Counted from the stretch's first letter, positions 8,444 through 37,142 are shown. The stretch is 64,000 nt of DNA from Methanofastidiosum sp. (GCA_020854815.1 JAHKLW010000029.1:21821-85820); one strand, 5' to 3'. Translations and numbers: made by a program. The notes: a model not told the origin generated them from the letters alone.

Positions 8444-10867
8444 TTATACCCTCATTAAGATGATGTCCCTGATATTCTGATCCTTTTTACCTTTGAACGC
8501 ATCAAAGACTTCTCGCCTCTCCCTTCCTTTTGAGTTTCGGTATACAACTAGCCAGTAAGGAAGGTATACCTCTTCAGTTTTCCAGATTTTGGCATTGCCA
8601 AGAGTTTCCATCCCATTTGAAATGTCATTTTTTGAGATAAGTGATTCAATTACTTTTCCAGATATTTCCTTACTCTTAATGGATATATCCAGTTTTTTAA
8701 GTTTTTTATCCTCAAATCCCTTGACCAATTTAAATTTAATCTTTGGCTTGACACTGATGTTTCCGCCGTCCTGTTTATACGCAAGGAGCCCTCTTGCCTC
8801 AAGACTCGAGATTAAGGAATGTGTTTTTCTGGGGGTGAAACCAATATCTTTTTTTATCTCAGAGATTGTTGGATTTTCTCTGTCAATAAGATAATCCAAA
8901 AACCATTTTTCGTCCTTTTTAAGTTTGTAAATTTCAGAAAATCCTACAGTTCTGGAAATCTTTCCTTCCCAGATGACAAGCTCACCTGTAATGCCGTCAA
9001 AAAAGCATGACATGCTCTTGTAACTGCCCTTCTTTGGCATATAATCAAAAAGCACCATGACAAGTGGATAGTAGATAGGCACTACTTCTTGTATCTCCTC
9101 TGATTTAAGGGCTATCTTTTTCCGATTTTTAACTGCAATCTCTTTCATTGTGACATAGTCAATTTCACTGGATACCACAGGTGCTATTTTTATGCCCTTA
9201 AATGCAGCTTCTCTGCCCGGATCGTATTCAGTTTCGTATTCATCGACGAATTCAATTTCTTCCGAGAGATCTTCTTCCTCATCGATCATTGGTATATCAA
9301 TTACAACGGGCTTTGGTTCAGGCTTCGGTTTTATTTCCTCTTTAACATCAAATTCACCGTCAAGTCTTAGCTCTTCTATGATCTCCTCAAATGAGAACTT
9401 GAACTTGTATTCTTGATTTACTATCTTCACCACTTCCTCCATTTCGGCAAGCGGTCTCTTCTGCCTATACTTCTCAAGGATAAGATTCTTAATATTTGTC
9501 TTCATTAGCTCTGGATCGATATCAAGCATGGGCTGCCTTTCCCTTCCCTCATGCTGACTTATCCTTGGCCTTACTGAGAGCAAAAAAGCCCTGGATGTCG
9601 ACTCTTCCTTGTCTCCAATTATTGCACTCCCTATGGGTAGAGACCTTATGAATCTAAAATCAGAAAGTTTATTTGGGATTTCAGAGGGCATCCTCTGTAG
9701 GACTGCCTTGATATCGTCTTGGTAAACTAGTTTATGGCAGATGAGAAGGTCTACCTGGGACAATATTCTCGAATCGATTGCCGATGGCTGCTGTGTGGCA
9801 AGAACTATGGAGCATCCTGGCTGCCTTCCCTGTCTGACATACTCTATCAAGCTATCTGTTGCTGCTGTGGCCTTTCCTCCTCTCGGCACAAGTATGTGGG
9901 CCTCATCTATCATAAGCCACGTTACGGGCACGTTTCCAATGATATTAATGTCTCCCATAGCTTCCTGTCTTGCGATAACTTTTCTACTGTTCAAGATGTT
10001 CCTTGAAAGGAGCCCCACCACAAGTGCTCGGACATTGTCCTCTAGAAAGCTGACATCAATGACTGAAACTTGCCCCCTTTTTGACAGGTCATTTAGCTTT
10101 GTTCCATTCTTGTCAAATATCCCCCACTGGATAGCACCTGTAAGTCTTGCATTTAACGCCCTTCTTGTGTTCTCCTTGAATCCTCCGCCTCTTGAAGATA
10201 TGCTTTCATCGTTTTCGATAGTCTTTATCAAATCTTCAATGTCATATTCATCGCCAAGTCCGGCTACATGCTTTTCATCAATTGTTGTGTATCCAGACTT
10301 TGTTTTATCTATGACTCGCTCAATTAAGAGGCCCATAGTGTCAAATCGCTCAATATCAAAGGTAAGACACCAATCATCAACTCGGAGTTCTGAAGGTTTG
10401 ATTTTAAAGACATCATCCCACGTCTCTTTTGGCGCCTTGTGGACGTAACCTACTGGAATAAAGACCTTAACATTCTTAATGCCTGTAGGCTTTAATCCCC
10501 AGCGCTCAAGCAGATCAGCCTCGCTTGCAGTTTTGTTTTTTTGCTTCATGCTCCAGAAGATCCCCATCGGATCGATAATCATTATACCAACGGCATCATT
10601 TTTCATGGCCATCTCTTCAACAATGACGCCAAGAGTATAGGACTTACCGCTTCCTCTCATCCCACAGATGAATATTGCATGCGGGCTAATGCTGTCAAGA
10701 AGGACTTTTTTGTTGAAATAGTTCTCCCACTGCCTAGTAGTTTCATTTACCTTTCCGACATAGAGTGCAGCTTTGCTTTTATATTTCTCAAATGTGCTTT
10801 TTTTCCTACCTACATATACCCCTTCTAAATCAGAAAGGAGTTCCAGGTTTTCCTCAATATCAATCAT
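8444..10867 (-). CDS. HerA/FtsK-superfamily (DUF87-like) P-loop ATPase with C-terminal winged-helix domain
   Basis: Walker A is 'GMRGSGKSYTLG' near the N-terminus and Walker B is 'WLMIDEAHILVP' (DEAH-type, as in HerA). An acidic linker is followed by a wHTH-like 'TISEIKKDIGFTPRKTHSLISSLEARGLL'. The likely start is the internal Met 'MIDIEEN' at 10867, because the track start at 10951 would overlap the divergent TGT gene. Confidence 0.65.
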   Translation of the reverse strand: MIDIEENLELLSDLEGVYVGRKKSTFEKYKSKAALYVGKVNETTRQWENYFNKKVLLDSISPHAIFICGMRGSGKSYTLGVIVEEMAMKNDAVGIMIIDPMGIFWSMKQKNKTASEADLLERWGLKPTGIKNVKVFIPVGYVHKAPKETWDDVFKIKPSELRVDDWCLTFDIERFDTMGLLIERVIDKTKSGYTTIDEKHVAGLGDEYDIEDLIKTIENDESISSRGGGFKENTRRALNARLTGAIQWGIFDKNGTKLNDLSKRGQVSVIDVSFLEDNVRALVVGLLSRNILNSRKVIARQEAMGDINIIGNVPVTWLMIDEAHILVPRGGKATAATDSLIEYVRQGRQPGCSIVLATQQPSAIDSRILSQVDLLICHKLVYQDDIKAVLQRMPSEIPNKLSDFRFIRSLPIGSAIIGDKEESTSRAFLLSVRPRISQHEGRERQPMLDIDPELMKTNIKNLILEKYRQKRPLAEMEEVVKIVNQEYKFKFSFEEIIEELRLDGEFDVKEEIKPKPEPKPVVIDIPMIDEEEDLSEEIEFVDEYETEYDPGREAAFKGIKIAPVVSSEIDYVTMKEIAVKNRKKIALKSEEIQEVVPIYYPLVMVLFDYMPKKGSYKSMSCFFDGITGELVIWEGKISRTVGFSEIYKLKKDEKWFLDYLIDRENPTISEIKKDIGFTPRKTHSLISSLEARGLLAYKQDGGNISVKPKIKFKLVKGFEDKKLKKLDISIKSKEISGKVIESLISKNDISNGMETLGNAKIWKTEEVYLPYWLVVYRNSKGRERREVFDAFKGKKDQNIRDIILMRV

Positions 10868-10918
10868 GTTCACTAAAAAGATATAAAAAGTCCTATAATT
10901 AAAACCTTTTCGGATTAA
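10868..10918. promoter_or_regulatory. divergent intergenic promoter region with two TATA-like boxes ('tttttatat' / 'tcctataattaaaa')
   Basis: 51-bp AT-rich spacer between the divergent ATPase and TGT-like genes. TATA-like elements lie about 20-30 nt from each start codon, which suggests leaderless transcripts. Confidence 0.3.
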
Positions 10919-11956
10919 ATGGAAGCAATTTCTAGGATTAAGACAGCTCATGGAGACATCAAAACACCTGCGCTCCTCCCTGTCTGCGCACTTACCTATG
11001 GCGTCTGGGACGTTTTTATTGAAGAGAGAGTCATTCCCCCCTGGAAACTTTCTGAGGCCACACTTTTCTCTTTAGAGTATGTGAGAAACACAAAATATGA
11101 GGAAAAGGTCGTAAACGGGTTTCACAGGCTGTTTAAAGAAAAAAAGCCGATATTTGTTGATTCGGGCGGATTTCAATCAATGAAGAAAGGAATTGAGAGG
11201 GATCCTATTGATGTGCTTAGATTTCAGGAAAAGCTCAAAGCAGATGTTGCTGCAACATTTGATTATCCTGTGCCACTGAATGTTGAAAGGGCAGAGTATA
11301 TGCAGATGCTTCAGAAGAGTATTGACAGTGCGAATCTAACCCTTCAAAATAAAGAGAGAGAAGAGATGCTCCTATATTCATGTGTGCACGGATTTTCTAA
11401 AGAAGAGGTCGACTGGTACTTTTCAAAGCTTCGTGGTGGTTTTGACGGCTATGCGATGGGATCACTTGTCCCAAGAAAAAATGACTATAAGACCCTTATT
11501 GAGATTATCCATAGGGCCAAAATGCACGCTCATGAGCGAGAAAAGCCTCTCCATATTTTTGGGGTCACTGGGTTTCCAATGTTATATGCCTTGAGTTATA
11601 TGGGTGTTGAGACCATGGATTCGTGGACATACCTTGTTGCATCAATTTACAAGGAATACATACATCCAGAAACTTTAAAGAGAGTCAGGATGAGAAAAAC
11701 TGGGAGTATCCCTGAATGCGATTGCTTTATCTGCAAGGAGCTTGGGATGGAAGATTTTTTGGGAGCTACAAGTGTTCCCCAGGCTTATCTTGCAATTCAT
11801 AATTTGAATATCTTCATGCGTGAGATGAAACTGATAAAAGAGCACATGGATGAGAACAGCTTTGAAGAGCTAGTTCAACGTAAAAGTAAACAAAACATTC
11901 GAATAAAAAAAGTTTATGATTATGCTAAAGAACATATGAAAAACAATGTCTTATAG
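10919..11956 (+). CDS. tRNA-guanine transglycosylase family protein, archaeosine-TGT-like catalytic domain only (no C1/C2/PUA domains); DpdA-like candidate
   Basis: 345 aa. Has the substrate-Asp motif 'FVDSGGFQ', a catalytic-Asp region 'HIFGVTGFPMLYALSYMGVETMDSWTY' and Zn site 'CDCFICK...AIHNLN' (CxCxxC...H). Sequence strings resemble the catalytic domain of archaeal ArcTGT (for example 'IKTPALLPV'). Confidence 0.75.
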   Translation: MEAISRIKTAHGDIKTPALLPVCALTYGVWDVFIEERVIPPWKLSEATLFSLEYVRNTKYEEKVVNGFHRLFKEKKPIFVDSGGFQSMKKGIERDPIDVLRFQEKLKADVAATFDYPVPLNVERAEYMQMLQKSIDSANLTLQNKEREEMLLYSCVHGFSKEEVDWYFSKLRGGFDGYAMGSLVPRKNDYKTLIEIIHRAKMHAHEREKPLHIFGVTGFPMLYALSYMGVETMDSWTYLVASIYKEYIHPETLKRVRMRKTGSIPECDCFICKELGMEDFLGATSVPQAYLAIHNLNIFMREMKLIKEHMDENSFEELVQRKSKQNIRIKKVYDYAKEHMKNNVL

Positions 11957-11961: not shown

Positions 11962-12123
11962 CATAAAATATCTAGAAACAGGTTAGGAATACCTGACGTG
12001 ATAAAAGATAAACTATTTGACGAAGGGGTTAGCTACGCTAAAAATAAAGTGTTGGGCCTAGGTCTTTACATTATTAAAACGACAATTGAGAGATATTGGG
12101 GGCAAAACCACATTTTAGAATAA
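11962..12123 (+). pseudogene. C-terminal remnant of a histidine kinase (HATPase_c G2 box) without start codon
   Basis: A 53-codon open frame starts right after a stop codon. It reads 'KDKLFDEGVSYAKNKVLGLGLYIIKTTIERYWGQN', matching the HK consensus '...RIFE.F......GTGLGLSIVKRIVEAHGG'. There is no start codon or N-terminal portion. Confidence 0.35.
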
Positions 12124-12148
12124 TGCCCCCAAAGGCTCTATTTTTTTG
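12096..12148 (+). terminator. hairpin (9-bp perfect stem 'TTGGGGGCA'/'TGCCCCCAA', 19-nt loop) followed by T7 run
   Basis: The inverted repeat at 12096-12104 / 12124-12132 is followed by 'ggctctatttttttg' and lies downstream of the TGT-like gene. Archaeal terminators are usually oligo-T tracts. Confidence 0.4.
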
Positions 12149-12363
12149 AAATTGAAAAGTTTTTAAAAAATAGTTAGTTCTATATTTATTAACTACTAAA
12201 ATTTAATTAAACCTATACTTATTCTTTTATTGCATAGTTTTACTCAATATAAAATTTATCAAAATAATAGAAAGAAAAATAAATATGTTTATCCTATAAT
12301 TAATGGTAAATTATTAGATAATTTGCCCCAAAGAGGGAATAATGAGAAAGATAAATAAAAGAT

Positions 12364-12651
12364 TTAAGATTTGTGGATCTCGTATTTTATTATATCCTCA
12401 ATCTGAGTTTTTATGGAGTCAATAATTTTCTTTCTTAAGAATAGGCAGTCTGTAGATATCTCTTTTCTAATTTTTGGAAGTATTTCGTCGTTACATTCGT
12501 CTTTATACTGTTCTATCTTGAGAGAGATATAATTCAATTCTTTTTTTAGAGCTGAAACATCAACCCCTTGATCCTCTAGCTTCTTTATTGATAAATTAAA
12601 TTGAGAAAGGGTCTCCAATATCTCATTTAATCCTGAATTTTTTATTTCCAT
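12364..12651 (-). CDS. hypothetical coiled-coil protein
   Basis: 95-aa ORF with heptad-like charged/hydrophobic pattern. No recognisable domain. Confidence 0.35.
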   Translation of the reverse strand: MEIKNSGLNEILETLSQFNLSIKKLEDQGVDVSALKKELNYISLKIEQYKDECNDEILPKIRKEISTDCLFLRKKIIDSIKTQIEDIIKYEIHKS

Positions 12652-12835
12652 ACCTAATCATGCCTTAATACATTAAGTGGTCCGATCTTGGATATATTGC
12701 ACACAGGTATAATTCTATATAGAGATTATGTAATATAATAACACTACAAAGTAATGAAACAATGTTACATTAAAAGCTTATTGATGGTTAAAAATAAAAA
12801 AATGTAAAAAAGAAAACTATTATTTAAGTGAATGA

Positions 12836-13021
12836 TTACTTCTGTTCAATTTCGACGACTTCAGCTATTGGGGCATTCTTTTTGACACTTTCAATGCCGT
12901 TAAGACATGCTCTCTTTGTGGTGTAACCTTCGCCTGTTGCAATTATTTCCCCATTTCCAGCTTTTAATCTAAATCGAAATTGTTTTTTTGCGTCCGTATA
13001 TACCTCAAATTTTGCTGCCAT
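12836..13021 (-). CDS. DUF1508 (YegP-like) domain protein
   Basis: 61 aa, 'KFEVYTDAKKQFRFRLKAGNGEIIATGEGYTTKRACLNGIESVKKNA'. Matches the DUF1508 single-domain pattern. Confidence 0.65.
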   Translation of the reverse strand: MAAKFEVYTDAKKQFRFRLKAGNGEIIATGEGYTTKRACLNGIESVKKNAPIAEVVEIEQK

Positions 13022-13099
13022 GCTATCACCTACTATATAGTCTTCTTACTATTTAACGTTATTGATTTTTAAAATTAAAAAATTGGATTTCATTTAGAT

Positions 13100-13913
13100 T
13101 TAATTTGAGTTCATTTTTAAAATGAAATGAAAAAGAAAAGATTGTTTCCAGAGCCATCCTATTATGCCCTTGTTATTTAATTCTTCATCTGCTAATAGCT
13201 TAAGCCTTGACTGTTCCTGTTCTATGTTTTGAACTTGTTCCTGAAGGATAGCTTTTGTTTGAGTGTCAAAATCACTTTCTTCTATGAGTCTGTTTAGTTC
13301 CCTGATTCTGTTTTCATTTATTACAATCTCCTGCACTATGAGTCCCGCTGCTTCGTTGTCCCCGCCTGCAAAGAATTTGACAAATCCGCTTCTGCTTTGT
13401 ATCCTTTCTTCTGCCCTAGTTGTTATCTCAAAGGAATTTTTGATTTCATTTGATACCTTTGATATGTTTGCTTCTGATTTGCCAAACATAGGGGCTGTTG
13501 ATTCGATTGCCTGGACTGCAACTTGGGCCATCTTTTGGTTCTGTGGTAAGTTTGGCATTGTGGAGTTTACTTCTTGATTTATTTGTTGGATAACTGATCT
13601 GAACTGTTGTTCAGTGTTTGGCGCAATTTGATTTTGATTCTGAATATTCCGGGGGTTACTGCGACATTGCCTTCATTCTGAATAATTTGAGTTTGTTGCT
13701 GAACTTGGATATTGGATGTATTTCCTTTATTTGAAATTTGCTCTTGAACATTCAATTGATTAGCATTCTGAGTCGGAGTTACATTATTATTTGAATTTGA
13801 AAGATTTTTAGGGGATGTGTTTGTTTCTTTGTTTGACTCTTGATTATGTGGTGCTGCGGCATATGCTGAAGTGAAAAGAAATAAAATAATTAAAAGAATA
13901 AAGAGTTTTTCAT
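13100..13913 (-). pseudogene. secreted Q/N-rich coiled-coil protein gene interrupted by two homopolymer frameshifts (A5 at 13906-13910, C5/G5 at 13651-13655)
   Basis: The ATG at 13913 gives 'MKNSLFF*'. Adding one A would give 'MKKLFILLIILFLFTSAYAAAPHNQ...', a canonical signal peptide. The frame then runs about 85 codons ('...IIQNEGNVAVTPG'). After a 1-nt shift at the C5 run it continues in the frame of ORF 13100..13558 ('RNIQNQNQIAPNTEQQ...MPNLPQNQ'). Confidence 0.45.
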
Positions 13914-13928
13914 TTAGTCACCCTTTAT

Positions 13929-14741
13929 TTATTTTTTACCTCCGCCACCGCCATTGCCGCCACTGTTTCCATTGCCATTTCCACCTGCATTGCCTGAGTT
14001 TCCTTTTGAGTTGCCCTTGTCTTCATTGTTTTTGTTAGAGTTGTTGTTTTTCGCCTCATCTTTCTTGTCTTGGATCATCTGTTTGATTCTCTCTCTTTCC
14101 TCTAGTTTTTCCTGGAGCTTTAGTTCATTCTGTTCCTTTAGCTGTGTCCTTGTGGCATCTTTTTCTAAGTATCTTTCAGAAGCATTGAGTCTTGCTTCAA
14201 GTGAAGTTAATAGACCAAATGCTCTGCCTGTTTTTCCTTCTTCAATGGCTAAAGAGATTTTGTCAAGTGTTGAAGAAAACTGGCTTAAGTGAGAGTAAAC
14301 AGATTGAGGTAGATTAAAGCTGTCTATATAATAAGAGTTGCCGTCAATATCGGTAAAGTAATATCCATCTTCCTTTTCTTCAAAGTAGAATTCGAATTCG
14401 CCAAGTGTGTATACGCCTTCTTCTGGAGCTTCTTCAGTTGTTGATTCTTCGCCAGTTTCTTCTCCTAAAGGCTCTTCGGGCGTTGTTTCTTCCTCAGTTT
14501 CAGGTGCGACCCCATAGAGAACAAATATTTCTTCTATGATCTCGTAAAATGCATTTGACTTTTCTGTGAACTTCTCATCAATTACCGATGTTTCAGAAGT
14601 AACTTCTTCGATTTCTACTGCCTCTTCAAAGGCAACGTTAGCTATATCTTCAATAGTGCTTTCGGCCATTGCAGGAGCTATAACGCTTAATAGGAGTCCA
14701 ATGCCTATTAATAATGCCATATGCCTATGTGTGTTTTTCAT
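13929..14741 (-). CDS. secreted acidic protein with Gly/Asn-rich C-terminal tail
   Basis: 270 aa with signal peptide 'MKNTHRHMALLIGIGLLLSVIAPAMA'. Has an E-rich middle, a coiled-coil segment and a 'GNSGNAGGNGNGNSGGNGGGGGKK' C-terminus. Confidence 0.6.
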   Translation of the reverse strand: MKNTHRHMALLIGIGLLLSVIAPAMAESTIEDIANVAFEEAVEIEEVTSETSVIDEKFTEKSNAFYEIIEEIFVLYGVAPETEEETTPEEPLGEETGEESTTEEAPEEGVYTLGEFEFYFEEKEDGYYFTDIDGNSYYIDSFNLPQSVYSHLSQFSSTLDKISLAIEEGKTGRAFGLLTSLEARLNASERYLEKDATRTQLKEQNELKLQEKLEERERIKQMIQDKKDEAKNNNSNKNNEDKGNSKGNSGNAGGNGNGNSGGNGGGGGKK

Positions 14742-14910
14742 ACGAAAAATAATGTTTCTTTAACCTATTTAAAGCTTTCTGTGCCTTTATTTTAAATTTA
14801 GAGTTTAAAAATAGTTCATAATAGTTTTTAATCGTTCATTAAAGTTTATTTTGTTTTTTAATTGTTTATATTAGTTTATTTTAGTTTTTTAAGTTATAAT
14901 AAATCATATT

Positions 14911-15342
14911 TTAGAATATTAAAATTATAAGGGGCATAATACCTAAAAAAAAGTTGAAATAAAGAATATTTATTAAAGAGAATAAAAAAGATTTATTTTT
15001 CTTACCGAAACCGAGTATCTTCATGAATGAAAACATTGGAGTTGGCTTGTCTATTGCAACTTTAATAAGCACAGAAGTATTTTTATTATAAAATTTTACC
15101 GTTCCAGATTTCTCAGCTTTCCAAGTCATGACTAATTTTTGGCCATCCCACTTGTCATCCACATAAGATAGCACCCCATTTGGAGTTTCCAAAGCATCAT
15201 AGCTACCATTACTTGTGACAATGACATCTTCTCCAATAGCATAATATATCTTATTTGGATAAATATATGTTGCATCTGGTAATTCAGTTGCAGTTACAGA
15301 AGCTACTCCAATCATGCTCCCGAATAGTAACAATCCTATCAA
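14911..15342 (-). CDS. small secreted protein carrying the shared C-terminal 'P..MKILGFGKK' motif (followed here by a 25-aa hydrophobic extension)
   Basis: Signal peptide 'MIGLLLFGSMIGVASVTA'. The motif 'PTPMFSFMKILGFGKKNKS' matches the island-wide C-terminal consensus. The extra tail 'FLFSLINILYFNFFLGIMPLIILIF' follows a T5 homopolymer and may be an indel artefact. Confidence 0.55.
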   Translation of the reverse strand: MIGLLLFGSMIGVASVTATELPDATYIYPNKIYYAIGEDVIVTSNGSYDALETPNGVLSYVDDKWDGQKLVMTWKAEKSGTVKFYNKNTSVLIKVAIDKPTPMFSFMKILGFGKKNKSFLFSLINILYFNFFLGIMPLIILIF

Positions 15343-15457
15343 AATTGTGAATATTTTTTTTCATAATTATCACTTTTAATTAACTTGATTTATATCTATG
15401 TGTTTTTAAATATTTGGTATCAATTTAGAAAAGATAGAAAGAAGAAAAAAAATTAAT

Positions 15458-16621
15458 TTATGGAACAACAATCTCAACGACAATCCTGTCAAATGTTCCG
15501 TTCAGTGAAAATGCCGTCATGACAACTGGATATCTACCTGAAGAAACGTTTGGCCCTACTGTGAAAGTTGCATCATAAGACCCTATGTTATGTGCTTTGA
15601 TCTTCTGTAAGCCTGGTTCGATGCCGACAATTATGCCCTCCGGTAATCCGTCAAATCTTACCCTTACATCATTCTGTGTAAAGAACCCTCTGTTTTCAAT
15701 CTGGATCTTCGTCTGTTGAGTTCCGGGCGATATGTTGAAGCTTGATATAGTCTTTCCGTCTTGAATAATTGTATCTCCGCCAACTATCTGGAAGTTCTCT
15801 ATGTCGACGTTTGGATAAAGTATCGCTGCAGGGATAGATTTTTGTCTGCACTCATAGCAACATTGCCTTTCTAAAGTTATCCCAAATTCATTTGGATCAA
15901 AACCCTCATCTGCAGTTATAGTTATGCTTGACGGTATTCCTTTTATAGAATTCATGTATTGTCCGTTTTCTTGGTCGTAGAAGTATATCTCAATATATTT
16001 TCCAAATAATATACCATTAGCTTGAAATGGAACTCCGTTGACATATATTGTTCCTGAACCGGAATAATATACTTTAAGGGAATACTGTTCATGCACAATT
16101 TGGCAATTATAATTGTTTGGGAGTGTGCAATCAAAAGAAATCTTAGGGGTACAATCACCCTCTGCAGGACAATTCCTTACGTCTATGCATCCTACAGGCC
16201 CAGAAAAGATTATTGGTGCAAGGCCATTTGTGCTGCACCTTGGAACGGGAATTGATTGTCCGAGAGTTATCGGTTTAGGTGAAGCTATCATGCATTCTTC
16301 TTGGCAAATATCTTCAGAATTTGATACTATGTGGAGTGAGTTTTCAAGCACACGACATTGAGTGAGGCAGTCTTGGTATCCATTATTCTCATCTCGACAG
16401 TAAGCCTGACAACCCTGTTGTTGTATAAATTGTAATTCTTGGGAGCAATCGGAATAACATTCTTCATCAAAATAGGGTTCATAAATAACATATTCCCATT
16501 TACATCCTTCTAGATGATCGTTATATATCTCTACTATAGACTCTTCTAAGCATCCAGAAAATAATGAAATTAATATAAGGCCAGATAATATCAATACTAT
16601 TTGCTTTTTCATAATGATCAC
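15458..16621 (-). CDS. secreted cysteine-rich protein (no C-terminal KIL motif)
   Basis: 387 aa with N-terminal signal peptide/lipobox-like 'LISLFSGC' and more than 30 Cys. The likely start is 'MKKQIV' at 16612. Confidence 0.55.
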   Translation of the reverse strand: MIIMKKQIVLILSGLILISLFSGCLEESIVEIYNDHLEGCKWEYVIYEPYFDEECYSDCSQELQFIQQQGCQAYCRDENNGYQDCLTQCRVLENSLHIVSNSEDICQEECMIASPKPITLGQSIPVPRCSTNGLAPIIFSGPVGCIDVRNCPAEGDCTPKISFDCTLPNNYNCQIVHEQYSLKVYYSGSGTIYVNGVPFQANGILFGKYIEIYFYDQENGQYMNSIKGIPSSITITADEGFDPNEFGITLERQCCYECRQKSIPAAILYPNVDIENFQIVGGDTIIQDGKTISSFNISPGTQQTKIQIENRGFFTQNDVRVRFDGLPEGIIVGIEPGLQKIKAHNIGSYDATFTVGPNVSSGRYPVVMTAFSLNGTFDRIVVEIVVP

Positions 16622-16727
16622 GGTTATTATTTGTTAATGTTTTTATTCGTTGATATATAAATATTTTGGTAATCATTGTTCGATAAAGATGAAATTTAAA
16701 TTTTAAATAAAAGAAATAAAAAATGAT

Positions 16728-17123
16728 TTATTTTTCCTTGCCAAGTCTTAAGATTTTCATAAACTGTTGCATTGGGTACTCTTTTGGAACTATTGTAACT
16801 GTAGTAGCGTTACCCTTTGTAACACAACACCCGAGCCCACAACAAAAATTTACTTTTCCGGGTTTTAACGCTCTGAAAGTATATTCCCCATTGACATTGC
16901 TTATAAGTTCTAGGTACCCCTCCCCCGATTCACAAAGTATAATTGGTGACTGTATTGTAAAAGTGTCACCTACTTCTACCCTTGTTATCGAAGGTTTGTT
17001 GCATGTAGTTGCCATAACTGATGCAATACTAGATAGAAGGAAAATAATGGAAATTAACAATGCAAATAATTTCTTCATTAAATCACGATTAAAATTAGGA
17101 TTAGTTAATATAAACATTTGCAT
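16728..17123 (-). CDS. small secreted protein with C-terminal 'PMQQFMKILRLGKEK' motif
   Basis: 131 aa with signal peptide 'MKKLFALLISIIFLLSSIASVMA'. The C-terminus matches the shared motif. Confidence 0.6.
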   Translation of the reverse strand: MQMFILTNPNFNRDLMKKLFALLISIIFLLSSIASVMATTCNKPSITRVEVGDTFTIQSPIILCESGEGYLELISNVNGEYTFRALKPGKVNFCCGLGCCVTKGNATTVTIVPKEYPMQQFMKILRLGKEK

Positions 17124-17149
17124 TTAATTTTTACAAAAGAATAAAAAAA

Positions 17150-18136
17150 TTAATTTTTGTTTTTATTTAGGATCTCTAATATCTTCATTATAGGTATTGA
17201 CCCTGTCGGGTCTCTACTAGATGCGTAGTGGAATCCCATATCTACTGTGCCTTTGTCCCATTTCTCATCTGTCCTTGTTGTAAATCCATTGTATAGCCCA
17301 AGGGCAGCTGACTCGTCTGAGCCAGAATCAACAGATGGACTAGCAATTGAAAGGTAATACTCACCAAGTCTTCCTGTAGCAAACTTTGGATCAACTGAAA
17401 TTGAGCCTATGCCAGGCCCCTGCTCATCGTAATCTCCTCCGGTATTGCCCCACGCATTTGAATATGTTATTTCTGATGGGTCGCCATCATCCTCTATGTC
17501 AAATCCTTCATCGCCGTTTCCGACAGCGATGCAGTTTATCACTTTGGTTCCTCCATAGTCATCATAGAATCCATCGCTACTATTATTTGCAGCTGTGCAA
17601 TTTATGTATGTGCAGTGGCTATTATCGTCAAATCCATCTGTATTGTCATATGCTAGACAGTTCTTGAGCGTTCCATAATCGTCTGTAACAAATCCATCAA
17701 AAGCGTTGCTATGGGAGATACAGTTCTCAATATACACATAGTTGCCATCAAGGTAGAATCCGGCACCTGAAGCATTCCTAATAGTTATATTTTTCATTGT
17801 AGTATAGGAGCTAGTGCTAGATATCGCATTGCCGACGCCGGCATTTGTGGCATCAATTATAGTATTGAAAGGACTGTCCCCGATTATTGTAAGATTACTT
17901 GCTGAAAATTCAATTCCGTCTTTAATATAATAAGTCCCTGCATGAACGTAAATTGTTGACCCGGGGGGTGCGCCTTGGATTGTGTCATGAAGGACCTGCC
18001 ATCCATCGCTTTCGTATACATGGTATACGTCTGCTGAAACTGGATTTACCATAATTAAAATAGATATTAATAAAATTCCAGATATTAAAAATGAAGTAAG
18101 TTTTTTCATTATAGTCGCCATTATAAAAAAAATCAT
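17150..18136 (-). CDS. secreted right-handed parallel beta-helix (PbH1/pectate-lyase-fold) protein with C-terminal 'SIPIMKILEILNKNKN' motif
   Basis: Signal peptide (likely start 'MKKLTSFL' at 18109). Has repeated 'N..DGF' beta-helix rungs ('NAFDGFVTDD', 'NTDGFDDN', 'SSDGFYDD', 'GDEGFDIED'). It is a paralogue of 25180..26181. Confidence 0.7.
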   Translation of the reverse strand: MIFFIMATIMKKLTSFLISGILLISILIMVNPVSADVYHVYESDGWQVLHDTIQGAPPGSTIYVHAGTYYIKDGIEFSASNLTIIGDSPFNTIIDATNAGVGNAISSTSSYTTMKNITIRNASGAGFYLDGNYVYIENCISHSNAFDGFVTDDYGTLKNCLAYDNTDGFDDNSHCTYINCTAANNSSDGFYDDYGGTKVINCIAVGNGDEGFDIEDDGDPSEITYSNAWGNTGGDYDEQGPGIGSISVDPKFATGRLGEYYLSIASPSVDSGSDESAALGLYNGFTTRTDEKWDKGTVDMGFHYASSRDPTGSIPIMKILEILNKNKN

Positions 18137-18171
18137 GAGATTATATAACTGTTACGGCTAGTTAGAATAAG

Positions 18172-18197
18172 AAATAATTTAGTTCCTAAAGCTTGTA
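18172..18197. repeat. 26-bp direct repeat 'aaataatttagttcctaaagcttgta' (copy 1 of 2; copy 2 at 19563..19588)
   Basis: Exact 26/26 match with 19563..19588. Copy 2 is the 3' end (codons 'TSFRN*') of the UPF0210 gene. Copy 1 lies downstream of the COG1373 ATPase gene, so the two copies bracket it. Confidence 0.8.
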
Positions 18198-18222
18198 GCT
18201 GATATTATTACCTTTTGATTTT

Positions 18223-19539
18223 TTAGAGGTTTGACATATTACTTTTTTCAATAACCCACCTATAAGCAGGTATAACTCTAATTTTTTTATCTTCTATTTG
18301 AATTTCATCTGTCTGTTCAAAAGTTATGATTAGTCCTTCTCTAATCTTTAAGGCGTCCATAACTTCAATCAATCCATTTATCTCCCGTTCCATATTAGTT
18401 TCATCGAGTGCAAAACTGACCTGTATAGCATCTGTTATTTTGTTGCCCTTTTTGACTAGGAAGTCACATTCGTTCTTGTTTGAGTAGTAATAGATATCTT
18501 TATTTTCCCTCTTTAGCTCGATATACACCAGATTCTCTAAGTTTCTACCTTTGTTTGGCGTAAATGTTAAGCCACATATCTTGTTGAACGCTTGGTCGAC
18601 AAGGTATATCTTCCTTGGAGAGTTAAGCTGCTGTCTCAATGAATGGGAGAATTTTAGCACTTCGAAGAAGATGTAGGAGTTCCCAAGATAGGAAATATAC
18701 TCTTTCACAGTTATGGCATTCCCAAGGTTAAGTGTTTTTTTAAGAGAGTTGTATGTGAACTTACATGTGGCGTTAGTTGCAAGTATATTAACGAGCTCCT
18801 TCAATAGCTTCTCTTTCTTTATAGAATACCTAACTATTATATCCTTATACAGTATGTTCTCATACACTGTTTTTAAGTAATCCGAATCTTGATTTTTTAG
18901 ATACTCTGGAAATCCCCCGGAGTTAAGGTATTCTTCAAAGAGTTTTTGAAGATTAATCCTTTTTTCAGATATGTAAAAATCATCCTTGTTGAAGATTATA
19001 TTTTTGAATGAGAGGAACTCCACAAATGAGAAGGGGTATACCTCAAACACCTTGTATCTCCCTGTAAGCCTTGTACCAAACTCTTTGCTAAGAAGAGACG
19101 CATTTGATCCGGTGATTATTATTTTTTTGCCTTGGTCCTGTAATCTTCTAACAAAAGTTTCAAATTTCTCAACGTTTTGGATCTCGTCGAAGAAGTAGAT
19201 TTTTGAGGGTCCGTATGATTCGATTAGGACTTCGTTTAGAGTTTCGAATTCTTTAGCGTTAAAGTCAAGTAATCTTTCGTCTTCAAAGTTTATATAACAC
19301 CATCCCGATTTATTCTGCATTAATTGTTTTAACAGGGTAGATTTGCCACACCTTCTGACACCCGTTAGGATAATTATCCTTTCATCTTCGAAGAAACCTA
19401 ATATTTTATCTAATATCTCTCTTCTTACTGTTTCTTTCTGGATGTTTAGTTCCTTTTTTTGATTTATCACTACCTGTCTCAATATCTCTTTGGTAGTCAT
19501 ACTCATTAATAATGAGTACTTATATATAAATCTACTCAT
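18223..19539 (-). CDS. AAA+ superfamily ATPase, COG1373/DUF4143-type (archaeal ATPase)
   Basis: Walker A 'GVRRCGKSTLL' and Walker B 'IYFFDEIQ', with an overall COG1373-like architecture and a DUF4143-like C-terminal domain. The probable start is 'MTTKEIL' at 19500. Confidence 0.7.
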   Translation of the reverse strand: MSRFIYKYSLLMSMTTKEILRQVVINQKKELNIQKETVRREILDKILGFFEDERIIILTGVRRCGKSTLLKQLMQNKSGWCYINFEDERLLDFNAKEFETLNEVLIESYGPSKIYFFDEIQNVEKFETFVRRLQDQGKKIIITGSNASLLSKEFGTRLTGRYKVFEVYPFSFVEFLSFKNIIFNKDDFYISEKRINLQKLFEEYLNSGGFPEYLKNQDSDYLKTVYENILYKDIIVRYSIKKEKLLKELVNILATNATCKFTYNSLKKTLNLGNAITVKEYISYLGNSYIFFEVLKFSHSLRQQLNSPRKIYLVDQAFNKICGLTFTPNKGRNLENLVYIELKRENKDIYYYSNKNECDFLVKKGNKITDAIQVSFALDETNMEREINGLIEVMDALKIREGLIITFEQTDEIQIEDKKIRVIPAYRWVIEKSNMSNL

Positions 19540-30262: not shown

Positions 30263-33200
30263 GTGCCAAAAGAAGTTAATCAAATAACTAGAGAAATTGT
30301 TAAAAATCACCTAGAGAAAATTTCTAATTTTAAAGATGTTTATGACTTATTTAGATTATTAAATTATCCCGATGAGATTATTTATCCTTCTCCCACTAGA
30401 AGAAAAAAAGACTCATTTAATTTCAAGAAAGAAGACCAAGATAGAATTAAAGAAGTATATTCAATAATAAGCATTGGTGAGGGATTATCTAAAGGAGATA
30501 ATCTTCAAGTATTTTTTGTAGAATGCAATTCCATCAGTACAAGATTTACTAGAGAAGTAACTAAAAAGTTAGCAGAATCTTATAGAAGCCTATTAGTAAT
30601 ATTTACCGATAACTATGATAATATTGTATTCATACTACCTGAAAATGTTAAAGAGAGAGATGTTTTCAAACTAAAACTGACACGCCTTCACGCCATTAAA
30701 TCTGATTTATACTATACTGATATAGATATTGTTTCTCGCCTATTGTACGAACAAGAAAATAGTTGGCGTTTTATTTTTAAAAAATGGAAAGATGCTTTTA
30801 GTGTTGAGAGAGTACAAGATTCATTTTTTGAAGATTACAAAAAAGTTTTCTTCAAAGTTAGAGATTATCTTCGTGAGCAAAAAGTTCCTAAAAAAGAATC
30901 GCATGAATTTACATTACAGCTGTTGAATAGAATAATGTTCATCTATTTCATTTCAAAAAAAGGCTGGCTTAAAGAGAAAAAATTCATTTCTTACTTATGG
31001 AAGGAATACAAAAAAAGCAACGAAAAAGATACGTTCTATTCCAAATGGTTAAAGCAAATATTTTTTAAAGCTTTTAACGGCAGGGCGGCAGAGATATCTG
31101 AAATATCTGAATCGATGCGTCAGTTATTACTAGAATATGCACCTCACTTAAATGGTGGACTTTTTAGAGAGAGTAAATTGGACAAACATGAGTCACTGAA
31201 AAATTTAGTTTTGCCAGATTCTCTTTTTTTAGAATTAATCCAAGGTTTTTTTGAAAGATACAACTTTACAATAAAAGAGGATATACCATTAGATCAAGAT
31301 GTTGCTGTTGACCCGCAAATGATTGGATATGTTTACGAATCATTAGCTAATGTTGCAGATGAAATTTACGATAGAAACGATCTTGGGATATTTTACACCC
31401 CTTCAATTGAAGTAGAGTTTATGTGTAAAAGATCTTTAGTTGAATATATATGGAATAATATGCCAGATATTTTACCTAAAGAAAAAATTTATCATCTCCT
31501 TTTTGATTTACCTGACCTTGATGAAGATTTAATTGATTATTTTAATTCAAATAATATATGGCATAGACTTGAAGAAGTGTTAGATAACTTATCAGTTGTA
31601 GACCCTGCATGTGGTTCTGGTGCATTTTTAGTTGGAATGCTAAATATTTTATCAGAAGTTTATTCTTACATTCATATCCAATCGAGCCGTAATATCCCTG
31701 ATTTTGAGAGAAAATACAGAATTATCCAGAGAAATTTATATGGTGTAGATGTAATGCCTTGGGCTTTGCATGCTGCAGAGTTAAGGCTATGGTTACAATT
31801 AATAGTTGAATCCGATTTCAAAACTGAAGAACTAAAGAAAGGGCCACTTCTACCTAATCTGGATATGAATCTTAGAAGAGGTGATTCTTTAGTTCAAGAG
31901 ATTGGAGATATGACTTTTAACCTACGCCAAAATATATTGAATCCAATATTGAAAAAAAGATTAGACAAACTAAAGTTAGAGAAACAGAAGTATTTTGAAA
32001 GTTCAAGAACTGGAAGATTTAGAAGATCAGATGAAATTAGAAATGAGGAAATTTCGATTTTCCAAGAAATAATTGCACAAAGAATAGAGGCTGTTGAAAA
32101 TAAAATCAAAGAAAACAATGATAAATTGCTCAAAAGCAAAAAATCAGAACAAACTTTTTTAGTTGAAAGGCCAAAATCAAAAATTCAACTTGAGATAGAA
32201 GAAGAGAAAAAAGAAGGAATTTTGCAGAAACAAATTACAGATCTAAAGCAAGAGATACATATATTAAACGAATTGAATAAGAAGCTTTTGAATCCTGAAG
32301 AAAAACCTTTCGTTTGGGATATTGATTTTGCCGAGATATTTGGAGATAAAGGGGGATTTGATATAGTTATCGGAAATCCACCATATGTTAGATATCAAAA
32401 AATATCTCCTCCAAATATACCTAAATCTGAAGTATCTTTGGAAGCTAAAAAAGAATATAAAGAGAAACTAATTAATTCAGTTAATAACCAATTCCCATTA
32501 ATTCAAAGTTTGGATAGAAAAAGCGATTATTACATATATTTTTACTTTCACGGTTTAAGCTTATTAAATAAAAAGGGAACATTTTGTTTTATTACTTCAA
32601 ACTCGTGGTTAGATGTAGAATATGGTAGAGACTTGCAAGAATTTTTAGTAAAATATGTTCCTATCTATTCTATTTACGACAATTTAGTAAAAAAGAGCTT
32701 TGCTCATGCAGACGTGAATACAATCATTGCTTTTTTTGGAAGCCCAAAAATAAAAATAGAAAACTTAACTGAATGGTTATTTGAAGAGGAAACAAATAAA
32801 GGAACATGGCCATATATAAATAATATTGCAAAATTTGTAATGTTTAAGAAACCATTTGAAGAATGTTTAATGATTGACAATTTATTAGAGATAGAAAAAT
32901 GCCAAAACACGAAAGTAACTAACGATATGAGAGTAGTATGTATTAGTCAAAAAGAATTATTCCAACAGGGATTGACTAATAAAAATATTTATTATGGAAC
33001 TATGTGGGGCGGGAGATATCTTCGAAGTCCAGACATATTCTTAGATATCCAGAAAAATTCAAGAGAAAAACTTACTAGATTAAGTGACATAATTAATGTA
33101 GAAACATATCTTAATACTCTAGGTTCAGACAAATTCTTTTTTGTCTCTGTTGAACAAACAGTTAATAATTTGTGCAAAATAAAGAGTAGAATAGATGGAA

Positions 33201-33919
33201 GCACTTTTGAGATAGAAAAAGAATTTCTCACTGATTTCATAGAATCACCAAAAGAATTGAAATCGATACTAGTAAAAGAGCCCTTTAAAACAAAATTGTT
33301 TAGAGTTCCAAAAGAAATATCCTTATCAGATTTAAAATCAAGTAAAGCATATCGATACATTTCTTTTGGGGAAAAAAATAAGTATAAGACAGATTTACCA
33401 AAACAAGCATATTATGGTTCTAAAATAATAATGGCTTGTTATCAAGGGGCAAGTCATATAATAAACTATAATCCTAATAGAATAATTTCCCATAGATTTT
33501 TTAGGATAATACCAAGAACTAAAGAAATAGATGAAGAAACATTAATTTTATTATTAAACTCTACTTTTTCATCTTTATCGCTTGAAATATTCAGAAATCC
33601 AAGTTTAGGCGGCGGAGTTTTAGCACATGGAACTTATACCATTAAAGAGTTTATAATACCAAAAATTGAAAAAATTGAGATTAACAAAAAAAAATTTATT
33701 TATAGAGAAATCAAGCCAATTTTTGAAGAAATAGGAATAGATCCAACAAAAACTATTAGGGATCAATTCCCCAAACCCATTCCTGAAAGAGAAGAATTAG
33801 ACGATATTATATTTGATGAATTAGGATTAACAAAAGAAGAAAGAAATGAAGTATATTGGTCTCTATGTGAACTAGTCAAACAAAGATTAGATAAAGCAAA
33901 AAGTTTGAAATGTGAGTAA
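30263..33919 (+). CDS. N6-adenine DNA methyltransferase, Eco57I/type IIG/PglX/DrmMI-like (1218 aa)
   Basis: Motif I 'VVDPACGSGAFLVG', 'LYGVDVMPWALHAAELRLWL', 'LPNLDMNLRRGDSL' and motif IV 'IVIGNPPYVRYQ'. A coiled-coil insertion of about 150 aa sits between the GDSL and NPPY motifs. A long C-terminal region could be a target-recognition domain (TRD). Overlaps the next gene by 8 nt. Confidence 0.8.
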   Translation: MPKEVNQITREIVKNHLEKISNFKDVYDLFRLLNYPDEIIYPSPTRRKKDSFNFKKEDQDRIKEVYSIISIGEGLSKGDNLQVFFVECNSISTRFTREVTKKLAESYRSLLVIFTDNYDNIVFILPENVKERDVFKLKLTRLHAIKSDLYYTDIDIVSRLLYEQENSWRFIFKKWKDAFSVERVQDSFFEDYKKVFFKVRDYLREQKVPKKESHEFTLQLLNRIMFIYFISKKGWLKEKKFISYLWKEYKKSNEKDTFYSKWLKQIFFKAFNGRAAEISEISESMRQLLLEYAPHLNGGLFRESKLDKHESLKNLVLPDSLFLELIQGFFERYNFTIKEDIPLDQDVAVDPQMIGYVYESLANVADEIYDRNDLGIFYTPSIEVEFMCKRSLVEYIWNNMPDILPKEKIYHLLFDLPDLDEDLIDYFNSNNIWHRLEEVLDNLSVVDPACGSGAFLVGMLNILSEVYSYIHIQSSRNIPDFERKYRIIQRNLYGVDVMPWALHAAELRLWLQLIVESDFKTEELKKGPLLPNLDMNLRRGDSLVQEIGDMTFNLRQNILNPILKKRLDKLKLEKQKYFESSRTGRFRRSDEIRNEEISIFQEIIAQRIEAVENKIKENNDKLLKSKKSEQTFLVERPKSKIQLEIEEEKKEGILQKQITDLKQEIHILNELNKKLLNPEEKPFVWDIDFAEIFGDKGGFDIVIGNPPYVRYQKISPPNIPKSEVSLEAKKEYKEKLINSVNNQFPLIQSLDRKSDYYIYFYFHGLSLLNKKGTFCFITSNSWLDVEYGRDLQEFLVKYVPIYSIYDNLVKKSFAHADVNTIIAFFGSPKIKIENLTEWLFEEETNKGTWPYINNIAKFVMFKKPFEECLMIDNLLEIEKCQNTKVTNDMRVVCISQKELFQQGLTNKNIYYGTMWGGRYLRSPDIFLDIQKNSREKLTRLSDIINVETYLNTLGSDKFFFVSVEQTVNNLCKIKSRIDGSTFEIEKEFLTDFIESPKELKSILVKEPFKTKLFRVPKEISLSDLKSSKAYRYISFGEKNKYKTDLPKQAYYGSKIIMACYQGASHIINYNPNRIISHRFFRIIPRTKEIDEETLILLLNSTFSSLSLEIFRNPSLGGGVLAHGTYTIKEFIIPKIEKIEINKKKFIYREIKPIFEEIGIDPTKTIRDQFPKPIPEREELDDIIFDELGLTKEERNEVYWSLCELVKQRLDKAKSLKCE

Positions 33920-36900
33920 TATGCCAATTCCAAATGAAATTATAGATAACAGTGAAGATAACAAATTATTCTCTTTCCTAAATTGGGCTCTTAAAGATTA
34001 TCCTAAAACAAATTTAGATATTGCCACAGCTTTTTTTGATATCAAAGCTTATGCTCTAGTAAAAAACAATCTCAACGGAGTTACTCAATTTAGATTATTA
34101 CTAGGTAAGCCTCCTGAAATAAAATCTGAAAGAACATTAGGCGATGTTCTTTCTGAAGAAATTCGTCAAAATCTTGAAGATCTAGAGTTATCTAAAAGAT
34201 GCAATGACACTGTAAAACAGCTGATTGACTTCTTAAAAAAAGAGAATGTCGAAGTTAAACTATTTGAAGATTTTCTTCATGGTAAGGCATATATCTTCGA
34301 TAATTTGATTGTTATAGGTTCTTCAAACTTTACAGGTGCTGGCCTAACAAGATACGGAGAATTAAATACTTGGAAACAAGAATCTCAAGCAATATATACA
34401 AAAAAAGAATGGTTTGAAAAGTTCTGGGCAGAGTCTATTGATTTTAAAAATGATCTTATTGAGTTACTTGATTCATCAAGATATGGTAGTAAAGAATATA
34501 CGCCATACCAAGTTTATATCAAAGCTCTTTATGAGCTACAAAAAAATGATATTAGAGAAGAACAAGAAGAAATAGACCCATATCTCCCCGCATCTAAAGT
34601 TAATCTTACAGAGTTTCAAGAGGATGCCATATATAGGATTGAATCAAGAATAGAAAAATATGGATTTATAATAATAGCTGACTCAGTAGGTCTTGGAAAA
34701 ACTTGGATTGCAAAAAAGATTATAGAAAAAAGAGGTTACTATAGAAGAGAAAATATCCTTGTAATATGCCCCGCCCAGTTAAAATCAATGTGGTCAAAAG
34801 AATTAAAATCTATAGATGTCAAAGATAATATATTGTCCCAAGAGGAGTTAGCTTCTGAGGAATATCTCAAAAAAATAAAGAATGTGATCAAAGATAATCT
34901 TTCTACTATCAGGTTAGTAGTTATAGACGAAAGCCATAACTTCAGAAATCCCTTGTCAAATAAATGGGAGCATCTATTCAATCTTCTATCAGAACATATT
35001 ACTAAGAAAGGAAAGAAACCTGAAATTCTGATGTTAACTGCTACGCCCATAAACAATAGTATTTGGGATTTGTATTGGCAGATAATGTTACTAACTTTAC
35101 AAAATCAAAGAACTTTTTCTAAAGACAATATTGATAACTTATTCAAATTTTTCAAAGAAGTTGAAAAGGAAGGAGAGCCAACTTTACTTAGTGATCTTCT
35201 AAATGAGATATCTGTAAGAAGGACTAGAGATTACATCGTAAAAAATTATCCAGAAGCTTTTGTTACTATCAATAACGAAGAAAAAAGAATAATATTCCCA
35301 AAAAGAGAATTGGAAAATATTAATTATAGTTTGGAAGAAACATATGCAGGATTGTATAGAGAGATATCAGAAATCATCACCGATAAATTATCAATGGCCT
35401 ACTATAGGCTTCTTGATTATAAGAAAGATGAAGAGTTAACAAAAGAAGAGGAATTCTTACGTGGACGAATGATTGCTATTGAAGGTATATTCAGTACAAT
35501 TTTATTGAAAAGATTAGAGAGTAGTATTGAAGCTTTTAGGATAAGCATAGGAAAACACGTCAATTTTCTCAACACTTTTAAAGAGTACCTTTTTGAAGGA
35601 AAACTTGTCACAAAAGAATTCTTTTCTAAATATTTAATGAATTTAGATGAAGAACTTGAGGATGAAGAAATAATACAATCACTCGAAGATTTTAATTTAG
35701 AGAAGTATAATACAGATAAACTGATTGAGGATATTGATTCAGACATTAAACTCTTAAACATTATCTTAGACAAAGTCAAGACAATCAAACCAAAAAATGA
35801 TGCGAAATTAAATTCTCTTAAAGAAATTCTATTTGATCTTTCTAAAAAAGGCCAAGTAGTAATATTTACTTATTATGCCGATACTCTGAACTATATTTAC
35901 AAAGAGATAAATTCTGATCCACAGTTTTCCAAGATAAAAATCCAAGCAATATCGAGCTCAGGCTTAACTTCAAAGAATCCCAATGAACGAGTGAGAATTC
36001 TTGAAGACTTTGCATCACATAAAGTTGATATTTTAATGAGTACGGATGTTTTATCGGAAGGGCAGAACCTCCAATCTGCACAGTTTTTGATTAATTATGA
36101 TCTTCACTGGAATCCAACTAGAATGATCCAGAGAGCAGGTAGAATAGATAGGATAGGATCCCCATTCTCAAAGATTCATGTATATAACTTCTTTCCTGAA
36201 AAGGAGCTTGAAGCTCTTTTGAGATTATTAGAATATCTTCAAAAAAAGATATTAGATATTGATCACTCTGTTGGATTAGATCAAACCGTATTAGGTGAAC
36301 AAATACATCCAAAAGTATTTGGAATAATGAGAAGGATAAAGAATAAAGATAATACGGTAATTGATGAAATTGAATCTGATGCATTTGGTGGTGGGGAGCA
36401 GTTCTATCAACCCCTTAAAGATTATTTAAAATCAAAGGCGAAAGAAGAAATTGAATCGATACCTAACGGCGTTTATAGTGGATTAAAAACTAAGAAACTA
36501 GCAGGGATTTTTTTCTATTACAAATATGATAATGATTTCCACTTCTGGTATCTTTATGATTTTAAGAATAATAGATTAATAAAAAACAAGACTGAGATAC
36601 TTAATTATATAAAATGTCCTCCCGATGAAAAAAGAGTAGTGCCTGATTTCTTTGAAAAGGTCTACGAAGTAAATCAGGTTATTGTTGAGGATATAAGAAA
36701 AGTATATGAAAACTTATCATCAAGTCAAGAACAGGACTCACAACTAAAAGAATTGGCTAGCTCAAAGAGTACAAAATTTATTAGAGATATAAGAAACGAA
36801 ATAGATAGATATATTGATGAATTCATGGATACTTATCAAGAGGGCAATGAGTTAGTAGAAAAATTAGAACAGATTAACGCTAAATTAGTAAAGATTCCTT

Positions 36901-37085: not shown

Positions 37086-37142
37086 GTCGTATAAAATATT
37101 TAATAATTCATAATGCCTATATCTCAATCAATTATACTCAAA

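Follow-up and report, generated by a model that had tools for sequence, protein, structure and literature searches.

In a 64,000-nucleotide stretch of Methanofastidiosum sp. DNA (GCA_020854815.1, JAHKLW010000029.1:21821-85820; hereafter the window), one gene encodes a tRNA-guanine transglycosylase (TGT) reduced to its catalytic domain. The family of short TGTs to which it belongs is distinct and appears to be part of the core genome of the Methanofastidiosales and Theionarchaea, inherited vertically and in single copy. Judged by sequence, it is not the housekeeping archaeosine enzyme (ArcTGT, TgtA), since it coexists with a canonical full-length TgtA. Phages and bacterial Dpd islands are the known settings of DNA modification with 7-deazaguanines, which has a role there in restriction or anti-restriction. 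Our tentative reading, held with somewhat less than even confidence, is that the short TGT is an orphan, core-genome, DpdA-like transglycosylase for preQ0 (7-cyano-7-deazaguanine), with DNA as the leading guess for its target. A preliminary description of the locus had proposed a DNA-targeting TGT acting together with the HerA-like ATPase encoded divergently beside it; the non-housekeeping, possibly DNA-directed TGT is retained here and the module with HerA is not.

That the 345-aa protein is a TGT is apparent from its Pfam match (TGT, PF01702, residues 4-325, 117 bits) and from its alignment to the Pyrococcus horikoshii ArcTGT (1iq8; E 3.5e-24). The alignment is restricted to chain residues 30-352, i.e. 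the catalytic domain, and hence the C1, C2 and PUA domains are absent, as had been described; neither Pfam nor NCBIfam gives a PUA or C-domain match to the protein, and no separate open reading frame (ORF) for C1, C2 and PUA, as in a split ArcTGT, is present in the fetched loci of the family. The Asp motifs and the CxCxxC...H zinc site recorded earlier are likewise all present, and D81, D115, D234, C267, C269, C272 and H294 are unchanged in 25 family members. With the family alignment as input, an AlphaFold2 model of the protein reached a pLDDT of 87.9 and a pTM of 0.90, and a fold search with it placed ArcTGT 1iq8 at the top (TM-score 0.78), with bacterial TGTs next. Identity to Pyrococcus ArcTGT is 24-27%, and the hidden Markov model (HMM) for TgtA (TIGR00432) gives 155.3 bits, below its curated equivalog cutoff of 350; the DpdA models score 36.6 bits (NF041059, cutoff 200) and 37 bits (PADLOC).

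A second, full-length ArcTGT with a PUA domain, a check set beforehand, was found in the genus. The best 120 matches to the P. horikoshii catalytic-domain protein are mostly from Methanoperedens, Halobacteria and Methanocella, and the Methanofastidiosum TgtA was located by filtering those matches for lysine- and isoleucine-rich ones, together with cluster names. One of these, P0422, belongs to a 90%-identity cluster in which several NCBI members from metagenome-assembled genomes (MAGs) are named 'tRNA guanosine(15) transglycosylase TgtA [Methanofastidiosum sp.]'. Its full-length members have 584 aa with TGT, TGT_C1, TGT_C2 and PUA domains and score 571 bits on TIGR00432 (cutoff 350). This TgtA shares 54.8% of its residues with P. 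horikoshii ArcTGT and 24.8% with the short TGT, the catalytic domains of canonical ArcTGTs from Methanoperedens, Halobacteria, Archaeoglobus, Methanopyrus and Methanocella being 54-61% identical to that of Pyrococcus. In tetranucleotide signature the TgtA-bearing contigs correlate with the window at r 0.96, vs at most 0.92 for unrelated low-GC archaeal loci. Another lysine- and isoleucine-rich candidate, P0403, was dropped, lying as it does in a tgtA-arcS operon of a low-GC archaeon, and the names of the other canonical representatives (Methanocaldococcus, Thermoplasmata, Syntropharchaeia and others) include no Methanofastidiosum. Co-occurrence is thus based on the taxonomic labels of MAG proteins and on composition, and, with the short TGT in every Methanofastidiosum species representative found by the scan described below, it is very likely that the two enzymes reside in the same organisms. 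A tblastn search of 580 kb of fetched loci with canonical ArcTGT and ArcS-like queries detected the short TGT only and is uninformative on TgtA; no report of archaeosine in Methanofastidiosa was found in the literature.

The canonical Methanofastidiosum tgtA (L052 5001-6755; also L053-L059) lies between a pyruvate:ferredoxin oxidoreductase (POR) operon and T2SSE/T2SSF genes of archaeal pilus or archaellum type, and arcS is not adjacent. The window has POR-like genes of its own (645-2667), and their identification with the operon beside tgtA, by which tgtA would lie just outside the window, was rejected, the identity of 26-31% being that of paralogues.

Phylogenetic placement tells the same story from another side. 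In a search of 1.8 billion cluster representatives, the short TGT found one close match at 331 bits, followed by a gap to matches of 158 bits or less. In neighbour-joining (NJ) trees (Kimura distances, 200 bootstraps, with the phage DpdA1-4 sequences and the TGTs of BREX-Related Capture (BRC) systems outside the set), the canonical ArcTGTs (470-714 aa) have their own clade and the short family lies within a radiation of 300-400-aa TGTs. It is monophyletic in 198/200 bootstraps, the split of canonical plus bacterial-like TGTs from all short TGTs, the family included, is recovered in 196/200, and grouping of the family with canonical ArcTGT in 0/200. Catalytic-only and in the ~300-400-aa class, apart from the canonical enzymes and with the His, GSLVP and F-x-DSGG signatures, the protein belongs to this short archaeal-type superclade, and the earlier suggestion that it is distinct from the tRNA archaeosine enzyme is upheld by its position outside the canonical clade and by a DpdA-type His in its pocket. 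Four longer proteins (P0200, P0211, P0212 and P0218; 598-655 aa) have a TGT domain that contains insertions and shares 34-40% identity with the short TGT, and in the two examined, P0200 and P0212, the region that follows matches the ArcS model; the P0200 cluster includes a Poribacteria member. Such TGT-ArcS-like proteins of ~600-655 aa could make dG+ directly on nucleic acid.

The active-site motifs, whose positions are in the table below, separate the groups further. Canonical enzymes, the Methanofastidiosum TgtA included, read TDSGSFQ, LDIPT, TIQG, GGVVP and FDSA, whereas the short family and the other short groups read F[VI]DSGGFQ, TFDYP, VHG and GSLVP, and the short family itself has DSW where canonical enzymes read DSA. 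At the pocket column of Gln169, 41/46 canonical sequences have Gln, and His is found in 11/11 of the short family (H157 being invariant across it), 7/7 of a haloarchaeal group and 10/10 of a Dpd-like ~390-aa group. The DpdA of S. Montevideo has His181 at the equivalent position (PMC10164549), and Hutinet et al. mention 'the conserved histidine' of DpdA (PMC6884629). On the rationale given for the corresponding loop in the DpdA study (PMC10164549), the Val-Pro of GSLVP would be compatible with preQ0 rather than preQ1, and we infer the substrate preference by that analogy.

In a scan of one genome per species the family was present in 29 genomes, in single copy in each; their labels are Methanofastidiosum, Methanofastidiosia, Theionarchaea or broader archaeal, the exceptions being two contigs, 'Halobacteria archaeon' and 'bacterium'. 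Within the genus the short TGT is 81-90% identical, comparable to its neighbours, and the gene evolves at about the rate of these housekeeping neighbours. On the near-complete 1.44-Mb Methanofastidiosum contig JAXGZJ010000001.1 it is located at about 946-947 kb. The 18 genomes outside the genus (TGT 42-50% identical) have three clade-specific neighbourhoods, all housekeeping: a 220-aa metallophosphoesterase downstream of the TGT (clade A); PyrK-like, NADPH-dependent F420 reductase-like (NpdG-type), UbiB and GuaA genes (assigned by eye from translations); and, in Theionarchaea, a 375-aa winged helix-turn-helix (wHTH) protein upstream. In Theionarchaeal loci (L003 6880-8007, L037, L038, L041) the latter is conserved, 375-384 aa long and with the wHTH at its N-terminus, and its gene extends into the start of the TGT gene, an overlap suggestive of translational coupling. 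Homology of this protein to the C-terminus of HerA was rejected, there being no similarity to the HerA-like ATPase, as was equivalence of the clade-A metallophosphoesterase with that of the haloarchaeal cassette dealt with below. A viral origin of the family was rejected also, with members in no IMG/VR contig and only weak matches (21-27% identity) in the phage collection.

The loci of several short relatives outside the family are of a different type, clearly related to genetic conflict. In the ~390-aa group (L012 4182-13076; L014 3192-12800) the TGT is accompanied by an overlapping 1689-1861-aa DEAD/Helicase_C/MZB(/PLD) protein, and the clusters also contain a member of the Vut_1 preQ0-transporter family, DUF6884, DUF6364, a 532-aa PUA protein and PD-(D/E)XK or GIY-YIG nucleases, with an integrase in L012. 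Haloarchaeal plasmids (L010 3966-12049; L011 6009-12067) carry a conserved cassette in which a 344-aa TGT is joined by a giant 'queuine tRNA-ribosyltransferase' of 964-1159 aa (with a DUF6884 match in the L010 copy), a ~295-aa protein and a BrxC/D-type ATPase, and QueD or a restriction endonuclease is nearby; this cassette is probably an archaeal Dpd/BREX-like DNA-modification system. (Hutinet et al. called a haloarchaeal host TGT, EMA11768, 'host DpdA' (PMC6884629); it may or may not be one of the 344-aa group.) Among the nearest relatives of the short family is P0209, a 354-aa TGT of a likely Theionarchaeal MAG (L047 2278-12308). Its gene lies in a defence island, between genes for SIR2_2 proteins and for a nucleoside deoxyribosyltransferase-like product, and is divergent from three others, which encode an AAA_16 ATPase (413 aa), a protein of 256 aa and a weakly BrxC/D-like protein of 1181 aa that has a wHTH at its C-terminus. 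One-to-one homology of this cassette with the haloarchaeal one is unsupported, the similarity being weak and confined to the BrxC/D-like protein. The short family shares with these defence and plasmid TGTs the superclade, the length class and the His157, GSLVP and F-x-DSGG signatures. Unlike them it is vertically inherited and stands without their neighbours: BrxC/D or AAA_16 ATPases, helicase or giant DUF6884 proteins, preQ0 supply (Vut_1, QueD), restriction genes and SIR2.

With the conserved residues in place, the short TGT is predicted to be an active stand-alone guanine/7-deazaguanine base-exchange enzyme of the non-canonical short archaeal-type clade. By the double-displacement chemistry of the superfamily guanine would be swapped for preQ0, with Asp234 attacking C1' of a flipped-out guanosine, Asp81 acting as general acid/base, the GSLVP loop picking preQ0 and the CCCH zinc site having a structural role. 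DNA would be the most likely substrate. The enzyme may be a DpdA-like 'orphan' whose ancestors were TGTs of defence islands and which, in the manner of orphan methyltransferases, has been retained with no restriction partner. Its functional analogue would then be the bacterial Dpd system (DpdA, 7UI4, with DpdB and DpdC; PMC10164549), where too a TGT paralogue devoid of tRNA-binding domains exists beside a housekeeping TGT, and where the pocket His, the Asp triad, the zinc site and the preQ0-compatible loop recur. Against this likeness, the short TGT matches DpdA at no more than 31-37 bits, is without the insertions of DpdA (345 vs ~406-436 aa) and is a core gene rather than part of a genomic island.

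A number of points weigh against a DpdA-like enzyme acting on DNA. Profile scores are higher for ArcTGT (149 bits) than for Salmonella DpdA (7ui4; 31 bits), and the fold is also nearer to ArcTGT. The placement comes from an NJ tree only, and from the metagenome scan a contig with both TGTs was not obtained, so that co-occurrence is at the level of the genus. As 5/46 canonical-length ArcTGTs also have His at the pocket column, His157 is a pointer and neither diagnostic nor proof. A core, order-wide distribution is unlike that of defence genes, and the 29 genomes show no conserved neighbour of the family that is concerned with DNA or restriction, the neighbourhoods being housekeeping and specific to sub-clades. 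Bacterial DpdA requires the DpdB ATPase, which is not present at this locus. In addition, ArcTGT does not need its C-terminal domains to be specific for G15 in vitro, and split-type and PUA-less ArcTGTs are active on tRNA (PMC4770233), with the consequence that loss of PUA does not exclude an RNA substrate.

Several of these points feed directly into the main rival, which we consider rather unlikely and nevertheless the most serious: a second RNA-directed transglycosylase that places preQ0 or another 7-deazaguanine at a different tRNA position or in another RNA, or that serves as a partner subunit of TgtA. ArcTGT provides the best HMM and fold matches (and, at E 2e-42, the top sequence match of the family profile), the single-copy gene is part of the core genome and has housekeeping surroundings, and the activity of PUA-less ArcTGT and the His of some canonical-length enzymes are both pertinent. 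So is the ArcTGT of Thermoplasma acidophilum, which modifies two positions and differs around Gln169 (PMC4770233). Yet the family is robustly outside the canonical clade, its nearest relatives are in defence or Dpd-like loci, it has no tRNA-binding domain and no RNA-modification gene is its conserved neighbour in the genomes scanned.

Much less probable is a two-gene Dpd-like or BRC-like DNA-modification module in which the HerA-like ATPase would take the role of DpdB, the core of the preliminary description. All 11 Methanofastidiosum species (TGT identity 81% or more) have the divergent pair with a nearly invariant spacer, and both genes are core in the same taxonomic order. Of the other genomes bearing the family, 0/18 have the pair. 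Absence of the adjacency elsewhere had been named beforehand as telling against the proposal, and that is essentially what is seen. Within the genus the pair is part of one conserved syntenic block, thiolase-HMGS-Mmp3-ATPase-TGT (HMGS, HMG-CoA synthase), and as this block also holds the unrelated mevalonate and Mmp3 genes, the adjacency is ordinary genus-level synteny. Looked at from the ATPase, the orthologues in three loci (from Theionarchaea, a further Methanofastidiosia lineage and a genome of Hodarchaeaceae) are not accompanied by a TGT and show neither conserved neighbours nor a defence context, the surrounding genes being of housekeeping type. The ATPase family also has a much wider distribution than that of the TGT, and the ATPases linked to TGTs in short relatives are of BrxC/D or AAA_16 type, not HerA.

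To our knowledge BRC is the only published system that pairs HerA/FtsK with a TGT, which speaks for such a module. It consists of PglZ, DUF6079, a STAND NTPase, DUF4007 and HerA/FtsK, with a GNAT and a TGT in some loci, and is reported in some archaea (PMC12839542, 2026). At the present locus a HerA/DUF87 ATPase adjoins the TGT, and it may or may not correspond to the HerA of BRC: it comes from a family spread over many archaeal lineages, and in the three orthologue loci its surroundings are not those of a defence system. The ORFs scanned within ~10 kb of the TGT include no PglZ, DUF6079 (BrxC-like), STAND NTPase, DUF4007 or GNAT, nor any DpdB (ParB-like ATPase), DpdC (DUF328) or DpdD-K restriction gene.

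The least credible alternative, that the short TGT is the housekeeping archaeosine enzyme in the form of a minimal ArcTGT that has lost C1, C2 and PUA, can draw on the JGI label of two family members (7-cyano-7-deazaguanine tRNA-ribosyltransferase), on TgtA being the best-scoring curated model and on the activity of split and PUA-less ArcTGTs (PMC4770233), but it is contradicted at genus level by the full-length TgtA of Methanofastidiosum, and further by an identity of 25% to that TgtA vs 54-61% for true orthologues to Pyrococcus, by 0/200 groupings with canonical TgtA and by the sub-cutoff TIGR00432 score. With the P. horikoshii enzyme (1IQ8/1J2B) the short TGT shares the TIM-barrel catalytic domain, three Asp, the CCCH zinc subdomain and a preQ0-compatible Val-Pro loop, and it differs from it in the pocket and motif residues.

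If the reading as a DpdA-like enzyme is followed further, it is possible, though open to considerable doubt, that Methanofastidiosales and Theionarchaea constitutively place a 7-deazaguanine, dPreQ0 or a compound derived from it, in their own chromosomes by means of a domesticated, partner-less DpdA-like enzyme that has been core since before the families diverged. Were this true, the deazaguanine would be an 'orphan' mark comparable to those of Dam and CcrM, and for a cellular archaeal lineage it would be the first of its kind that is not tied to a defence island. A core stand-alone DpdA-like enzyme, order-wide and beside the tRNA enzyme, would point either to housekeeping or epigenetic deazaguanine in cellular DNA or to a new RNA target, and either outcome would widen the known activities of the TGT family. 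The pairing with HerA, being genus-level synteny, should not be carried on as a 'module'.

Table. Coordinates of the short-TGT gene, its motifs and the adjacent features in the window
Feature	Position	Strand	Remarks
Short TGT gene	10919..11956	+	345-aa catalytic-domain-only TGT; distinct short-TGT family, apparently core to Methanofastidiosales/Theionarchaea
VDSGGFQ, Asp81	11156..11176	+	Corresponds to P. horikoshii Asp95; aligns to VDSGSFQ of 1iq8; family-invariant
FDYP, Asp115	11258..11269	+	Equivalent of Asp130, base recognition; family-invariant
VHG, His157	11384..11392	+	Column of canonical ArcTGT Gln169 (TIQG); DpdA-like signature
GSLVP loop	11459..11473	+	Corresponds to GGVVP in ArcTGT and to M208-V209-P210 in DpdA
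MDSW, Asp234	11615..11626	+	Equivalent of Asp249, catalytic nucleophile; family-invariant
Zinc site C267-D-C269-F-I-C272...H294	11717..11806	+	Aligns to CSCPVC...H of 1iq8; family-invariant
HerA/DUF87-type ATPase	8444..10867	-	807 aa, C-terminal wHTH-like segment; a neighbour rather than an established functional partner
Divergent spacer	10868..10918	.	51 bp, A/T-rich, two back-to-back TATA-like elements; putative promoter
Histidine-kinase remnant	11986..12105	+	40 aa, PAS/HATPase_c; tblastn 62.5% identity, E 3e-9

The neighbouring ATPase is of interest in its own right. From its first ATG the ORF has 835 codons' worth of protein (835 aa), and its start was set at 10867 on the lengths of the orthologues (805-809 aa) and on a 100% identical 807-aa NCBI MAG protein of Candidatus Methanofastidiosum sp. 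(P0070). With a DUF87/HerA P-loop core (PF01935, 64 bits; HerA_C PF05872, 22 bits), Walker A (GMRGSGKS, residues 69-76) and Walker B (LMIDEAH, residues 318-324), it is a member of the HerA/FtsK superfamily; HerA structures are the best matches in the PDB, 4d2i being the nearest. The preliminary description, correct as to a HerA-type ATPase of about 800 aa across a 51-bp divergent spacer, had it end in a winged helix: a putative one, with faint or weak precomputed TrmB matches in orthologues, lies at about residues 667-697 and not at the very end. Homologues detected number 1058, and the best 120 of these, at 37-100% identity and nearly all full length, include Theionarchaea, Hodarchaeaceae, Hadarchaeales and Diapherotrites; the ATPase is a member of a separate family that occurs in many archaeal lineages.

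The spacer itself is nearly identical, at 51-54 bp, across the 11 Methanofastidiosum species. It fits a compact bidirectional promoter, which the ATPase and TGT would share in this genus only, and tells nothing on shared function.

On the other side of the TGT, the histidine-kinase remnant is directly downstream as had been described, and aligns to residues 283-321 of an intact 341-aa PAS/HATPase_c kinase that follows the TGT in relatives. Collinearity with those relatives breaks at the 3' end of the TGT gene and returns near 18244. The intervening variable segment (12000-18200, GC 0.32-0.34) starts exactly at that 3' end, in place of the relatives' kinase, and encodes hypothetical, apparently secreted or low-complexity proteins without Pfam matches, together with a beta-helix protein. 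No integrase or transposase was found between the TGT 3' end and ~18244, and of the 'mobile-looking DNA' noted earlier it is the break in collinearity and the composition that remain. Just beyond, ~6 kb from the TGT, is an AAA_14/DUF4143 ATPase (18223-19539), outside the BRC component families.

Elsewhere in the window the genes flanking the locus include methanogenesis marker Mmp3 and mevalonate-pathway genes. An island at 30263-39220 (GC 0.28-0.32), ~18 kb from the TGT and with no linkage to it, resembles a defence cassette: a 1218-aa protein containing an Eco57I/MmeI-type methylase is overlapped by a 1057-aa PLD plus SNF2/ResIII helicase, and the other strand encodes a HATPase_c_3 (MORC-like) protein of 519 aa. 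Further on, 44776-49828 encodes a 384-aa Fic/DOC protein and an AddA-like protein of 1000 aa in which a UvrD helicase is joined to a PD-(D/E)XK nuclease.

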